A DNA stretch of 64,000 nucleotides from a virus. Below are positions 24,119-62,626 of this stretch, in pieces. The stretch is from the UHGV virus genome UHGV-0171999; one strand, written 5' to 3'. Made by a program: the position numbers and the translations under genes. Each line of letters starts with the position of its first letter. Within the stretch, counting starts at the first letter, position 1. The notes beneath the pieces are model-generated. The model did no database searches and was not told the origin of the DNA. It was given only the letters and a program-made list of their open reading frames with translations.

Positions 24119-24131
24119 TTAAAAATCCTTT

Positions 24132-36964: not shown

Positions 36965-37519
36965 TTATGACCTCTCATACACGTAGCTTCTCAATTTATT
37001 AGCCCAACGACTCCAATTTCCAACTATAGTTTTTGTATAATTTTTAACAAGAGTTTTTCTTATTGGAGCTGGAGGATTCGTCGGTTCAGTAGTATCAGAA
37101 GATGACCTAGAATTACTGCCAGAACCTCCAGATTCACCTTGTTCTTGGTAGTCATATATTAATGTTACTTCGTAAGTGAATGTCTTCTGGAGGTTTTGAG
37201 GAGCTTTCCATAGATATAACTGAGTATTAGAATCAGTTGGAAGGTCTTCCCATGAAGCAGCAGTTTTAAATTCATTATCTAAACGATATTTCAACGCATC
37301 ATTTCCAAATCCAAATACAGATTCATACGTTCCATATAAACGATTTTCTTCTACTAAAACCCCAGGAGTTTCTTCGTAACTAGTTATATTTATAGATACT
37401 AACGTTTCACCTGTTTCTAATTGAGCGGTAAAGGTGACGTCGATAGAAGAACCTTCCATGGATTCTCCTAAATCAGCGCTCATTGGAAGTATATTAGCCA
37501 ATGTCAATCCTCGATCCAT
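36965..37519 (-). CDS. 5.1: gp5.1 hypothetical protein
   Basis: 184 aa from ATG at 37519 (ORF-track start 37522 is TTG); overlaps the 3' end of gene 5. Confidence 0.7.
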
Positions 37520-41805: not shown

Positions 41806-42518
41806 ATGAAACTAATCTTTTTAAGCGGTGTAAAGCGTAGTGGAAAAGATACCACTGCTGATTTTATTATGAATAATTATTTTGCAGTTAAATATCAACT
41901 TGCTGGTCCGATTAAAGATGCACTAGCCTATGCGTGGGGTGTATTTGCATCAAACACCGTTCATCCTTGCTTAACTCGTAAAGAGTTTGAAGGAATTGAC
42001 TATGATCGTGAAACTAATTTAAATCTGACTAAATTAGAAGTAATTACGATTATGGAACAAGCATTTTGCTATCTTAATAATAAAAGCCCAATTAAAGGTG
42101 TGTTTGTTTTTGATGACGCAGTTAATTTCGTAGCATTTAACAAGATTGCTGACGTTATAAATAATATTGAAGATCAATGGTCAGTCCGTCGTCTGATGCA
42201 AGCCCTAGGTACGGATTTGATTGTTAATAACTTCGACCGCATGTATTGGGTAAAATTATTTGCTTTAGATTATCTTGATAAATTTAACTCAGGTTATGAT
42301 TATTATATCGTTCCTGATACTCGTCAAGATCATGAAATGGATGCGGCTAGGGCGATGGGTGCTACAGTAATTCATGTAGTTCGTCCTGGTCAAAAATCCA
42401 ATGATACTCATATTACAGAAGCTGGATTGCCAATTCGTGATGGCGATTTAGTAATTACAAACGATGGTTCTCTTGAAGAACTTTTTTCTAAAATTAAAAA
42501 TACACTAAAGGTACTATA

Positions 42519-42519: not shown

Positions 42520-43216
<697 letters not shown>

Positions 43217-43228
43217 TTTCACAAAGTT

Positions 43229-43258
43229 GTTTACACGTTGATGAGGTAGTGATACTAT
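43229..43258 (+). promoter_or_regulatory. T4-type early promoter upstream of ipI
   Basis: -35 GTTTAC at 43229-43234, 18 nt spacer, -10 TACTAT at 43253-43258. Confidence 0.6.
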
Positions 43259-43288
43259 TATCTCATCAAAATTAATTAGGAAAATAAA

Positions 43289-43575
43289 ATGAAAACTTTC
43301 AAAGAATTTACTTCTACAACTACCCCGGTTTCTACTATTACTGAAGCTACTCTTACTTCTGAAGTTATTAAAGCAAATAAAGGACGAGAAGGTAAACCAA
43401 TGATTAGTTTGGTTGATGGTGAAGAAATCAAAGGTACTGTTTACCTAGGCGATGGATGGTCTGCTAAAAGGATGGTGCTACAATCGTTATCTCTCCTGCT
43501 GAAGAAACTGCGTTGTTTAAAGCTAAACACATTTCTGCGGCACATCTCAAGATTATTGCTAAAAATCTTTTGTAA
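43289..43575 (+). pseudogene. ipI: internal protein I (IPI) gene interrupted by a 1-nt frameshift in an A-run
   Basis: N-terminal capsid targeting sequence MKTFKEFTSTTTPVSTITE; frame changes at 43466-43470 (AAAAG); the +2 frame continues ...DGATIVISPAEETALFKAKHISAAHLKIIAKNLL to TAA at 43573; restoring one A gives a 95-aa protein. Confidence 0.7.
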
Positions 43576-43593
43576 TAAATATTTCACAAAGTT

Positions 43594-43623
43594 GTTTACA
43601 TAGGGTTTTAGTTGTGATACTAT
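43594..43623 (+). promoter_or_regulatory. T4-type early promoter
   Basis: -35 GTTTAC at 43594-43599, 18 nt spacer, -10 TACTAT at 43618-43623. Confidence 0.6.
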
Positions 43624-43651
43624 TACCCTATCAACTACCGAGGAGAATAAA

Positions 43652-43837
43652 ATGAAACGTTGTGAATTAATTCGAAATGTTGCTATTGCAATTTCTGCTT
43701 CTGCTTTTAGTTTTTCAATGTTTGTTGGATTTATATGCGGATTATTAACTACAGCAGAAAACGTTTTTTCACTTGTAGTAGCATTTTTAATTGGTTTAAT
43801 TGCTATCGTTATGGATAAAATTTCTAAAGGTGAATAG
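43652..43837 (+). CDS. small hydrophobic membrane protein
   Basis: 61 aa; GAGGAG RBS; two predicted transmembrane segments. Confidence 0.6.
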   Translation: MKRCELIRNVAIAISASAFSFSMFVGFICGLLTTAENVFSLVVAFLIGLIAIVMDKISKGE

Positions 43838-45380: not shown

Positions 45381-45690
45381 AACCGGGTCGCTACCGGTAA
45401 GTCGTCGGACTGATGTTCCCTGCGTAAGGACTGGCATTAACAAATCTTTACGATCTGTTAATGTCCCCTTACATCACAGCAGAAACGGCGCACAGAATTA
45501 TCGATTCGAGGAAATATCTTTGCCGTAAGCCGAGTAGCGTTTTTGACGGAACGTTCGGATATGGTCGAGATATGGCCTTTTAAAAATATTGAGTAGCGTC
45601 AACTGCTTAATAACCGGGTTCGAATCCCGGCGTTTCGTACAAACACTTGCCTTAGCAGGTGGAACCCCGACAAGGTTGCCGCAAGGCTTA
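45381..45690 (+). ncRNA. structured non-coding region, candidate small stable RNAs (T4 species 1/2-like)
   Basis: No plus-strand ORF over 310 bp; several hairpins; tRNA-like T-arm CCGGGTTCGAATCCCGG; ends at a terminator. Confidence 0.35.
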
Positions 45691-45717
45691 GCCCCGACCA
45701 AAAGGTTGGGGCTTTTT
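45691..45717 (+). terminator. rho-independent terminator closing the tRNA/small RNA unit
   Basis: GCCCCGACC-AAAA-GGTTGGGGC hairpin followed by TTTTT. Confidence 0.7.
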
Positions 45718-45850
45718 GGTATCTAGGCCTTTCTGGACCTCTCTAGGCATCATTTAGTTTCTACCCTTTATAATATATTATCCTATCCTTTAATTGCCCC
45801 TTTCATCCCTAGAATTCCCTAAAACTTTTTAAAAAATTTTTCACAAAACT

Positions 45851-45880
45851 GTTTACACCCCTGTTCTTCCATGGTACTAT
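45851..45880 (+). promoter_or_regulatory. T4-type early promoter
   Basis: -35 GTTTAC at 45851-45856, 18 nt spacer, -10 TACTAT at 45875-45880, preceded by A/T-rich UP-like tract. Confidence 0.6.
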
Positions 45881-45923
45881 ACAACTATCAACTACTGATA
45901 CAGAAAACAACTTGGAGAATGAA

Positions 45924-46187
45924 ATGGATAATTACGGCGAACTGTTCAACTTCTTTATGAAATGCGTTTCAGAAGATTTCGGTCGTACAGTGAATGATAT
46001 TAAAGTTATCGGTCCTGACCATCCGATGTTTGAAACTTACGCAGTAATGGGTAATGAAGATGGTCAGTGGTATACTGTAAAGGTTGTGATTAACATGTTC
46101 ACTGCTGAAGGTTATGTTAAACTGTCTTCTAAAGTTTACCATGATAACGACGAAATCGCAGAAGAATATTTCAATAATATGAAATAA
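45924..46187 (+). CDS. hypothetical protein
   Basis: 87 aa from ATG at 45924 with GGAG RBS; ORF-track start 45912 is TTG. Confidence 0.6.
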   Translation: MDNYGELFNFFMKCVSEDFGRTVNDIKVIGPDHPMFETYAVMGNEDGQWYTVKVVINMFTAEGYVKLSSKVYHDNDEIAEEYFNNMK

Positions 46188-46224
46188 GTTTACATAGGCT
46201 CATGATTGAGATATTATGAGCCTA
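46188..46224 (+). promoter_or_regulatory. early promoter embedded in a 9-bp stem-loop
   Basis: -35 GTTTAC at 46188-46193, -10 TATTAT at 46212-46217; hairpin TAGGCTCAT...ATGAGCCTA spans 46195-46224. Confidence 0.5.
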
Positions 46225-46291
46225 TAACTTGATGATAGAGTATAATACTACTTTTACGGATTTTAAATCTTAATCAACCTAAGGAAATACT

Positions 46292-49159: not shown

Positions 49160-49962
<803 letters not shown>

Positions 49963-50440: not shown

Positions 50441-50701
50441 ATGAAAATGTATCAAGAATTTATCATTGAAGCAGATGCCAAAGGTCCTAAATTTAAAGTT
50501 AAAGCTTTCATTGGTGATGCGGAAGACTTTGGCTCATTAAAACGTAATGGGTATTTTTTCTTAGGTGGCGATGGTAAAGAAATCAACACCTATGCAAAAC
50601 GTAGTGAAATTGCTTATGTTGTAGCAAGCCCTAAAGTAGATGTTGACGATATTGGATATGATTTTAACAACTTCGGAATTATTTCTGGCGGTAAAGCTTA
50701 A
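50441..50701 (+). CDS. ipII: internal protein II-like (capsid targeting sequence protein)
   Basis: 86 aa; N-terminus MKMYQEFIIEA; position between denV and ipIII. Confidence 0.65.
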   Translation: MKMYQEFIIEADAKGPKFKVKAFIGDAEDFGSLKRNGYFFLGGDGKEINTYAKRSEIAYVVASPKVDVDDIGYDFNNFGIISGGKA

Positions 50702-50764: not shown

Positions 50765-51343
50765 ATGAAAACGTATAAAGAATTTATCGCCGAGGCCTTT
50801 GCAGGAAAAGCTCAAGGTATTAATAAGGACGAGTGGACTTATCGTGGTGGAAACGGCTTTGACCCTAAAACTGCTCCACTTGAACGATATCTAGCCACAA
50901 AAGCTTCTGATTTTAAAGCCTTCGCTTGGGAAGGACTTCGCTGGCGTAACGATCTAAATATTGAAGTTGACGGACTTAAATTTGCTCATATTGAAGATGT
51001 TGTTGCTAGTAACTTAGACGCAGCTTTTGTTAAAGCCGACAGTGACCTTCGTCGCTGGAATTTAAAACTGTTCTCTAAACAAAAAGGCCCGAAGTTTGTG
51101 CCTAAAGCAGGTAAATGGGTTATTGATAATAAATTAGCTAAGGCTGTCAACTACGCCGGTCTTGAATTTGCCAAGCATAAATCATCATGGAAAGGTCTTG
51201 ATGCAATGGCTTTCCGTAAAGAATTTGCCGATGTTATGGCTAAAGGCGGCTTTAAGGCAGAAATAGATACCTCTAAAGGTACGTTTAAAGACGCTAATGT
51301 TCAGTACGCTTACGCCGTTGCTAATGCGGCCCGTGGTAATTAA
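50765..51343 (+). CDS. ipIII: internal protein III
   Basis: 192 aa; N-terminus MKTYKEFIAEA targeting sequence; basic; position as in T4. Confidence 0.85.
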   Translation: MKTYKEFIAEAFAGKAQGINKDEWTYRGGNGFDPKTAPLERYLATKASDFKAFAWEGLRWRNDLNIEVDGLKFAHIEDVVASNLDAAFVKADSDLRRWNLKLFSKQKGPKFVPKAGKWVIDNKLAKAVNYAGLEFAKHKSSWKGLDAMAFRKEFADVMAKGGFKAEIDTSKGTFKDANVQYAYAVANAARGN

Positions 51344-57684: not shown

Positions 57685-57706
57685 GTCTCCTTCGGGAGAC
57701 TTTTTT
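57685..57706 (+). terminator. rho-independent terminator
   Basis: GTCTCC-TTCG-GGAGAC hairpin followed by TTTTTT. Confidence 0.7.
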
Positions 57707-60532: not shown

Positions 60533-61542
60533 TGAAAACAGTAATGAAAAGTTATTTTGGTAGTCATCTTTATGGAACTTCTACCCCAGAATCTGATGTA
60601 GATTTTAAAGAAATTTTTGTTCCTCCTGCTCGTGATATTCTTATCGGAAATGTTAAAGAGCATATGAGTAAAAACACTAACAACACATCATCTAAAAACA
60701 CTAAAGATGATATTGACCATGAACTATATAGTCTTAAGTATTTCTTTAAATTAGCAGCAGATGGTGAAACTGTAGCATTAGATATGCTCCACACTCCACC
60801 TGCACTAGTGGTTAAATCTGATTTGCCTGATGTGTGGAAGTTTATTCAAGACAACCGTTCTCGTTTTTATACAACTAACATGAAATCCTATTTAGGATAT
60901 GTCCGTAAGCAAGCTTCTAAATATGGCGTTAAGGGTTCTCGTTTGGCTGCATTACGTGATGTATTGAAAGTAGTTAATCAAATCCCTGAGCAATGGGTTG
61001 ATTACCAAGAAGATGGTTCTATTAAACAGCGTCGCACTAAAGTTGAAGATATTAAGCATCGTCTTCCAGAGAACGAGTTCTGCGAATGGGTGTTCCATAA
61101 TCATGAGAAAACAGGTCCGCAAACGTTCTATACAGTGTTGGGTCGTAAATATCAGACAACGCTTTCTCTTATTGAGCTTAAGCAGTCACTGAACAAATTA
61201 GATGCTGAATACGGCGAACGTGCTCGTAAGGCCGAAGCTAATGAAGGTATTGACTGGAAAGCTCTGAGCCATGCTTGCCGTGGTGGACTCCAACTATTGG
61301 AAATTTACAAAACTGGTGACTTGGTTTATCCACTCCAAGATGCTCCATTTATTCTCGATGTGAAGTTGGGTAAACACCCATTTAAAACGGTCCAAGAGTT
61401 TTTGGAAGATGTGGTCGATCAAGTAGAAGCAGCATCTACTGAAGCTTCTAAGAACGGTATGCAGCAAAAAGTGGACATGGGTTTCTGGGATGACTTCCTT
61501 GAGAGGGTGTATCTCGAAAACCATCGAAGTTATTATAAATGA
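60532..61542 (+). CDS. nucleotidyltransferase-fold protein (minimal NTase motif)
   Basis: 336 aa; N-terminal GSHLYGTSTPESDVD fits the G[GS]x(9-13)DhD nucleotidyltransferase signature. Confidence 0.6.
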   Translation: MKTVMKSYFGSHLYGTSTPESDVDFKEIFVPPARDILIGNVKEHMSKNTNNTSSKNTKDDIDHELYSLKYFFKLAADGETVALDMLHTPPALVVKSDLPDVWKFIQDNRSRFYTTNMKSYLGYVRKQASKYGVKGSRLAALRDVLKVVNQIPEQWVDYQEDGSIKQRRTKVEDIKHRLPENEFCEWVFHNHEKTGPQTFYTVLGRKYQTTLSLIELKQSLNKLDAEYGERARKAEANEGIDWKALSHACRGGLQLLEIYKTGDLVYPLQDAPFILDVKLGKHPFKTVQEFLEDVVDQVEAASTEASKNGMQQKVDMGFWDDFLERVYLENHRSYYK

Positions 61543-61544
61543 TA

Positions 61545-61568
61545 GGGAGCCTTCGGGCTCCCTTTTTT
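61545..61568 (+). terminator. rho-independent terminator
   Basis: GGGAGCC-TTCG-GGCTCCC hairpin followed by TTTTTT. Confidence 0.7.
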
Positions 61569-61593
61569 ATTTCAAAATTTTTTTCACAAAACA

Positions 61594-61623
61594 GTTTACA
61601 AGCATAAAGCTTTATGGTACTAT
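61594..61623 (+). promoter_or_regulatory. T4-type early promoter
   Basis: -35 GTTTAC at 61594-61599, 18 nt spacer, -10 TACTAT at 61618-61623. Confidence 0.6.
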
Positions 61624-61657
61624 ACAACTATCAACTGATACGGATTTGGAGAATAAA

Positions 61658-62626
61658 ATGAAAACTGTAACTATCAATAAGGGTATCTACTTCGGTAAAG
61701 AAATCTCTGGAACTTTTGAGCTCTTAGGCGAATGGTTCCCAGATAATGCTCCGGTAGATGCACAAGGAGATGGTAAAGTTTTTGTTGAAATTGACGGTAA
61801 ACGTCGCGGTGTTTGGGTTTACAAATCAGATATTTCATATGATGGTGTAAAAGTTGAAGAAGTTAAAGAATCATATGAAGATATGAAAACCCGCATTAAT
61901 AAAAGATTTAATGTTATGGGAATGATGACGAATGGTATTATTAACGGAAACATTCGTTCATTAATTATCTCTGGCGCAGCAGGTATTGGTAAAACGTATT
62001 CTTTAGATAAAGCTTTAAATAAAGCAAATGATATTGGATACATTGAATATAAAAGCATTAATGGTAAAATCTCTGGTATTGGTCTTTATGAGCAGCTTTG
62101 GAATAATCGTGAAGAGAATTCTGTCCTTTTGATTGATGATGTGGATGTTTTTTCTGATATGGACATTCTTAATCTTCTAAAAGCCGCTCTGGACACCGGA
62201 GAGACCCGTAAAGTATGCTGGAGCACTGCATCTTCCTACTTAGAAGAAAAAGGTATTGACCGTGAGTTTGAATTTAAAGGAACGATTGTTTTTATCACAA
62301 ACGTTGACATTGACCGCGAATTAGACCGTGGTACTAAACTTGCTCCACACTTACAAGCATTAGTGTCCCGCTCAGTTTATTTGGATTTGGGTGTTCATAC
62401 TAATGAAGAAATTATGGTCAGGGTTGAAGATGTTATTCTTTCAACTGACATGATGCAAAAGCGCGGTCTTTCTGATGAAGAAACTTATAAAGCATTATCA
62501 TGGATGAAAGTTAATGTAAACCGTTTACGCAATGTTTCACTGCGTACTGCTCTTTATCTTGCTGACTTTATTATGACCGACAAAAACGGTTGGGAAGAAA
62601 TTGCTGAGGTTACTCTTCTGAAATAA
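61658..62626 (+). CDS. AAA+ ATPase-like protein
   Basis: 322 aa from ATG at 61658 with GGAG RBS; Walker A GAAGIGKT and Walker B LLIDDVD; ORF-track start 61490 runs through the terminator and promoter. Confidence 0.6.
   Translation: MKTVTINKGIYFGKEISGTFELLGEWFPDNAPVDAQGDGKVFVEIDGKRRGVWVYKSDISYDGVKVEEVKESYEDMKTRINKRFNVMGMMTNGIINGNIRSLIISGAAGIGKTYSLDKALNKANDIGYIEYKSINGKISGIGLYEQLWNNREENSVLLIDDVDVFSDMDILNLLKAALDTGETRKVCWSTASSYLEEKGIDREFEFKGTIVFITNVDIDRELDRGTKLAPHLQALVSRSVYLDLGVHTNEEIMVRVEDVILSTDMMQKRGLSDEETYKALSWMKVNVNRLRNVSLRTALYLADFIMTDKNGWEEIAEVTLLK

Follow-up and report, generated by a model that had tools for sequence, protein, structure and literature searches.

The phage gene for internal protein I (ipI) is, judged by its sequence, present in a disrupted allele in the window (the whole stretch of DNA analyzed here, with a length of 64 kb). 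The window is part of a near-complete T4-like genome of about 167 kb that was assembled from a metagenome, and this genome belongs to Tequatrovirus. We consider it likely (with a probability of about 0.8) that a genuine and recent deletion of a single base, which shortened a run of five A's to four, has turned the non-essential gene ipI into a loss-of-function allele.

Identity of the gene and position of the lesion

In an intact phage, IPI is first synthesized as a precursor of 95 aa with a 19-aa N-terminal targeting sequence which directs it to the prohead core, where the head protease cuts after the residues ITE. The remaining 76-aa protein (IPI*) is injected together with the DNA and blocks GmrSD of the CT596 type, a restriction enzyme that cuts DNA carrying glucosyl-hmC. 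The ORF in the window (43289–43603, plus strand) starts with ATG at 43289, ends with TAG at 43601–43603, and codes for 104 aa. Its residues 1–60 correspond to T4 internal protein I and consist of the 19-aa capsid targeting sequence and 41 residues of the mature protein. Codons 1–19 (43289–43345, plus strand) encode MKTFKEFTSTTTPVSTITE, which has the ITE cleavage site at its end and is followed by ATLTSE. The mature chain in the Protein Data Bank (2jub_A) begins at A20 with these same residues (ATLTSE), right after ITE. The targeting sequence pattern of the family (MKT[FY]xEF, with a protease site I/L-x-E) is present in the ORF, as are the residues that are invariant among family members (M1, K2, T3, E6, F7, and E19). 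The first-pass annotation, which was made from the sequence without database searches, had described the targeting sequence at the gene start as intact, and this is confirmed by the cleavage site and by the start of 2jub_A. The 41 native residues of mature IPI* that follow (codons 20–60, 43346–43468, plus strand) are identical to those of slur03 and T4 IPI.

The alignment places the lesion at 43466–43469 (plus strand), where the window has AAAA, adjoined by G at 43470, and the relatives have AAAAA. The codons GCT AAA AAG GAT are thereby changed to GCT AAA AGG ATG. Four relatives were aligned (T4, NC_000866; slur03; SA21RB; EcNP1), and each alignment contains one gap, which is located in the A-run; all four relatives have five A's. 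This agrees with the first-pass annotation, according to which a 1-nt deletion within an A-run splits ipI and shifts the frame at 43466–43470 (AAAAG), and every position that it gave proved to be right. In the alignment to T4 ipI that it had suggested, the T4 reference shows five A's rather than the same four. The lesion is seen by direct comparison with relatives and not as a statistical pattern, and thus chance is not at issue.

When one A is added, the predicted 95-aa precursor and the 76-aa mature IPI* are regained. The restored mature residues (20–95) are 100% identical to 2jub_A, which is named "Internal protein I" and is the solved structure of T4 IPI* (2JUB). The Pfam model IPI_T4 (PF11634) scores 94 bits against the ORF of the window (cut-off 25) and covers model positions 1–42 of 76 only; against the restored protein it scores 180 bits and covers model positions 1–76. 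As in T4, the genes are arranged in the order 1 – 57A – 57B – ipI – trna.4, with an early promoter ahead of ipI. The assignment to ipI thus follows from the identity to 2jub_A, the match to IPI_T4, and the T4-like position between 57B and trna.4. Compared to IPI/IPI* from T4 (ipI; PF11634; PDB 2JUB), the targeting sequence, the cleavage site, the restored mature protein, and the position are identical. The difference is that the allele in the window is one A short and codes for 104 aa instead of 95.

An intact 95-aa frame which gives the complete 76-aa fold is absent: codon 60 is the last one before the shift, and the 35 codons that remain are found in the −1 frame. The first changed residue is residue 61 (K to R). 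While 60 native residues are kept, an out-of-frame tail of 44 aa takes the place of the last 35 of the 76 mature residues; it reads RMVLQSLSLLLKKLRCLKLNTFLRHISRLLLKIFCNKYFTKLFT in the zero frame and is closed by TAG (43469–43603, plus strand). This tail extends 28 nt beyond the native stop and runs across the −35 hexamer TTTACA (43595–43600) of the next early promoter, into which the annotated frame had been said to continue. The first-pass annotation had located the native C-terminus in the +2 frame, ending at TAA 43573, and this is where it was found. The frame which starts at 43291 (+2, equivalent to −1) is closed up to the TAA at 43465–43467, then reads KDGATIVISPAEETALFKAKHISAAHLKIIAKNLL, and stops with TAA at 43573–43575. 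The stranded 3′ part of ipI in this frame (43468–43575, plus strand) represents codons K61–L95 plus TAA, as determined by tblastn and by comparison with T4 and slur03. The ipI product of slur03 (95 aa) equals the window ORF for residues 1–60; its residues 61–95 are those of the remnant in the −1 frame. When residues 61–95 of IPI from EcNP1 were used for tblastn, they matched at 43468–43572 in the second frame (97% identity). The third frame is closed. As far as can be told from the reading frames, the stranded part cannot be expressed alone, because its frame is closed just upstream and there is no start codon before TTG at 43513.

Two 54-nt direct repeats (78% identity), each with an early promoter and a hairpin, flank ipI. 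The upstream cassette (43216–43269, plus strand), which drives ipI, is of the PeSL type. It carries the promoter TTTACA-N17-TACTAT at 43230–43258 and hairpin arms at 43238–43248 and 43259–43269. At the equivalent position, a T4 early promoter overlapping a terminator is annotated in SA21RB. The downstream cassette (43581–43634, plus strand), a direct repeat of the upstream one, drives a trna.4-like gene (43652–43837) and has its TTTACA-N17-TACTAT promoter at 43595–43623. The hairpin stems of the two cassettes differ in sequence, and both still pair. For the pair PST/T4, the PeSL consensus is TTTACW-N17-TAYWAT (PMC4122927). Both repeats fit the description of PeSL elements, in which an early promoter of this consensus contains a stem-loop and copies of which lie at the edges of variable genes. 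Such elements have been proposed to mediate modular shuffling of accessory genes in T4-type phages. The trna.4 homolog is 100% identical to that of EcNP1 and, having a promoter of its own, should be expressed normally.

Three more genes in the window have a targeting sequence of the pattern MK[TM]Y.EF. They are located at 49681–49962, 50441–50701, and 50765–51343, code for 93, 86, and 192 aa, respectively, and are all intact. The 192-aa gene sits where PF26861 (Phage_T4_IpIII, 192 aa) is tagged on the contig. The only broken member of the internal protein set of the window is ipI.

Real deletion or sequencing error

A missing A may also have been lost in the reads or in the assembly, so that the phage truly has five A's and an intact ipI. 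Indel errors typically arise in homopolymers, the allele is confined to one sample, and the downstream frame is perfectly kept, as would be expected if nothing were truly broken. We nevertheless consider such an error unlikely. The three readings that the first-pass annotation had offered thus fared differently: loss of function is the reading we favor, a sequencing error is possible but less likely, and a slippery homopolymer, which is dealt with below, is unlikely.

The same base string is present in three different assemblies. Exactly this 104-aa protein was found on four contigs only, three of which were compared to the window, and all three are byte-identical to it over 6.3–20.3 kb. These are the ENA contig PASO19-1_SAMN09781698_METAG-scaffold_6 (167,058 bp), the contig NODE_3_length_167000_cov_45.62 from ENA ERZ1035044, and the Logan contig SRR7658682_312 (51,207 bp). 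The k-mer coverage of the second of these is 45.6, which also argues against an error. The three pipelines agree on the bases, and they probably started from one read set (SRR7658682/SAMN09781698), so that the three assemblies do not represent independent confirmation at the level of reads. The sequencing platform may be deduced from the label PASO19, which probably stands for Pasolli 2019 and would point to Illumina and to the Madagascar cohort. Sibling records of the ENA series are likewise labeled by first author and year (ZHAN20, GUOW18, and KIMC21), and the new samples in Pasolli 2019 were NexteraXT/Illumina stool metagenomes.

The whole 64-kb window was compared to the phage EcNP1 (NC_054910), to which it is about 96% identical. 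Among 73 gap runs, the gap in ipI is the only one that is uncompensated, is not a multiple of three, and falls inside a conserved coding sequence, away from its ends. The other gaps which are not a multiple of three lie between genes, at the edges of genes (the final few codons of a gene included), in the D-loop of a tRNA, or are paired in divergent stretches. When EcNP1 proteins with a counterpart in the window were used for tblastn, all but three matched at full length in one frame. The exceptions are ipI, which is found in two frames with the split at 43468, and two genes which are cut by the ends of the window. The sole frame-broken gene among about 90 that are common to the window and EcNP1 is thus ipI. 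The window contains 1,138 homopolymer runs of at least four bases. The fact that only ipI is broken despite this number makes general homopolymer noise unlikely and speaks against an error in this specific run.

A further point is the gene that was hit. The internal protein genes have been described as non-essential (PMC12373910). Although a large part of the window codes for essential virion proteins, including structural ones, the single lesion falls in the dispensable gene ipI, and this too speaks against an error. Taken together, the agreement of three assemblies, the restriction of frame breakage to ipI, and the non-essential nature of ipI favor a real mutation, and we infer that the deletion was in the DNA of the phage and not in the reads.

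The comparison with EcNP1 revealed several other differences. Intergenic length differences of a single base were found at 24121 and at 45907 (four T's vs. five in both cases), and a base is missing beside an A-run at 57698. These differences are harmless, and they show that a difference of one base in length is tolerated between these phages outside of coding sequences. In-frame 12-nt indels occur at 42118 (gene 1) and at 42749 (57A); the dNMP kinase encoded by gene 1 has 237 aa (241 in EcNP1) and gp57A has 80 aa (76 in EcNP1). The gene 5.1-like ORF (36965–37519, minus strand) was called with 184 aa on the source contig, compared to 164 aa in relatives. The start chosen by the gene caller lies further upstream, so that the ORF reaches into the 3′ end of gene 5; its homologous portion has the full length, hence there is no frameshift. 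Five EcNP1 ORFs lack a counterpart in the window, in the regions around 45400–46250 and 61540–61660 (EcNP1 L004 18873–21092 and 3336–3745, respectively). These differences in gene content affect the variable stretch downstream of ipI, which carries the tRNA genes in T4, and one other stretch, as is expected for hyperplastic regions.

To assess how rare the allele is, the region 43230–43620 was compared by megablast to 50,697 phage records. A total of 494 records matched, of which 170 span 80% or more of the query. Sequence identity reaches 99.0% in the best matches, which have 392 bases where the query has 391. The two alleles were then distinguished with a 47-nt query (four A's) and a 48-nt query (five A's). 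The flanks in these queries are shorter than the 28-base word of megablast, and thus only 28-mers which span the allele can seed a match. In this test of the phage records, the 4-A allele was found in no record, and the 5-A allele, which is the same stretch plus one A, was found in 134. Exact pattern scans for the 4-A allele in IMG/VR, JGI metagenomes, and GTDB genomes did not return a match. A conserved 24-mer from downstream of the A-run also has no match in IMG/VR, so that IMG/VR provides no denominator. In these collections, the 4-A allele appears to be private, which fits a private mutation and also an error.

Several hundred contigs carry a member of the family, and most of them encode an intact 95-aa protein. 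A search for a sister genome in which ipI is intact yielded contigs from unrelated cohorts, which differ from the window in their local gene content. Public data contain sporadic examples of other disrupted ipI alleles, with products of 78 aa (BYEP02) and of 83 and 58 aa (Logan contigs). Like the allele in the window, these are truncated or frameshifted in otherwise T4-like genomes; unlike it, they have their lesions elsewhere, none being the 4-A allele. A 68-aa partial wild-type IPI is listed at NCBI under Enterococcus faecalis (WP_411429804.1). It is encoded on a 2.4-kb contig, which probably represents contamination of the Enterococcus faecalis assembly by a T4-like phage.

Recoding and new function

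A slippery homopolymer could in principle provide full-length IPI from the 4-A allele, either by −1 frameshifting at GCU AAA AGG or by transcriptional slippage, and the A-run would then be a regulated or phase-variable switch. The geometry is suitable, because a −1 shift after AAA (43466–43468) leads to AAG (43468–43470) and GAT, and thus to the exact wild-type protein. In addition, the codon at the shift site is AGG, which is rare in E. coli. T4-type phages, however, encode their own tRNA-Arg (T4 annotation), and four A's are far below the run length at which transcriptional slippage is known to occur. A slippery heptamer (X XXY YYZ) in the zero frame was not found at the lesion, where the sequence is U AAA AGG within GCU AAA AGG. 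There is also no stimulatory structure in the region 43460–43560, as these 100 nt fold no better than shuffled sequences. Their minimum free energy is −16 kcal/mol, whereas the shuffled sequences average −18.3 (z = +0.74), and 152 of the 200 shuffles are equally stable or more stable. Finally, the two-frame arrangement is not conserved: among relatives, all 134 records have five A's and none has four, and T4 has five as well. We consider that recoding at this site is extremely improbable.

Programmed −1 frameshifting in particular was rejected because heptamer, downstream structure, and conservation are all lacking.

The frameshifted product may also be thought of as a novelty. Neofunctionalization would imply that the 104-aa product enters the virion and has gained an activity, its new tail being basic and amphipathic; alternatively, inactivation of ipI may have been selected in the host. 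Both the targeting sequence and the cleavage site are intact, so that the aberrant protein could enter the head, and the ip loci are a hotspot of the arms race (PMC12373910). Against this, the tail is an out-of-frame reading of a sequence which is identical to that of the wild type, and thus had no time to adapt, and the allele is private. The structure prediction does not lend support either: AlphaFold of the 104-aa ORF (from the single sequence) yielded a pTM of 0.27 and a long helical tail, and this model is unreliable. We thus regard neofunctionalization or adaptive loss as very unlikely. The same holds for two more specific versions, which we likewise consider highly improbable. In one, the virion would carry and inject an 85-aa protein with a new basic and amphipathic C-terminus, whose effector activity would be new or dominant-negative. 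In the other, the short A-run would be a selected on/off switch for ipI in situations where IPI* is a liability.

Consequences for IPI and implications

A recent loss of function, which we favor, is consistent with the pattern of substitutions. The 105 nt that follow the deletion do not differ from T4 and slur03 at any position, and the differences before the deletion are synonymous only. This indicates that the deletion is recent and that ipI was under purifying selection until then. According to the Streisinger model, the replication machinery slips in homopolymers, and such slippage would account for the change from five A's to four. Streisinger-type frameshifts in T4 (rII, lysozyme) also involve a change of one base in a short A-run, and the likeness would be one of mechanism only. 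The deletion would be tolerated because ipI is non-essential.

The altered product is most likely still made. It would keep the targeting sequence and 41 mature residues, with the last 35 residues being exchanged for 44 unrelated ones, and it may be packaged and would be inactive as an inhibitor. The lost segment (KKDG–TIVISP and the C-terminal helix) is conserved in homologs down to 59% sequence identity. An AlphaFold model of intact IPI, which was based on 9 sequences and has a mean pLDDT of 70.7, shows a helix (19–29), three strands (50–54, 57–62, and 65–70), and a second helix (84–93). It fits the published description of the fold, in which N- and C-terminal helices flank two beta sheets and which is needed for inhibitor activity (PMC3012670). 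In this model, what is lost through the frameshift is the last part of the second strand, the whole third strand, and the C-terminal helix. These predictions suggest that the allele would be null with respect to GmrSD inhibition.

The phenotype may be anticipated from mutants of T4. Eco94GmrSD restricts T4 delta-ip1 by a factor of about one million (PMC4437046). By analogy, the phage is expected to be restricted on a host with GmrSD of the CT596 type and to grow normally elsewhere, as would be expected of T4 delta-ip1. In this strain and in T4 ipI-minus mutants, IPI is likewise lost from an otherwise viable phage, with restriction expected only on hosts bearing GmrSD. The ipI-minus mutants of T4 are laboratory mutants, reportedly going back to Black and Abremski in 1974. 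The allele in the window differs in being natural, as it comes from a metagenomic phage.

We are thus dealing with a known gene that carries an ordinary, recent loss-of-function frameshift, which is probably genuine. For annotation, the 104-aa ORF should be labeled as frameshifted ipI (a pseudogene or a possible error) and not as a new protein. Predictions of the host range of this phage should not assume protection against GmrSD of the CT596 type. The significance of the finding is limited. If the deletion is real, it represents a natural case of a T4-like gut phage which has lost one of several injected anti-GmrSD inhibitors, and it would be in line with the view of the ip loci as arms-race cargo that turns over fast and is dispensable on most hosts.
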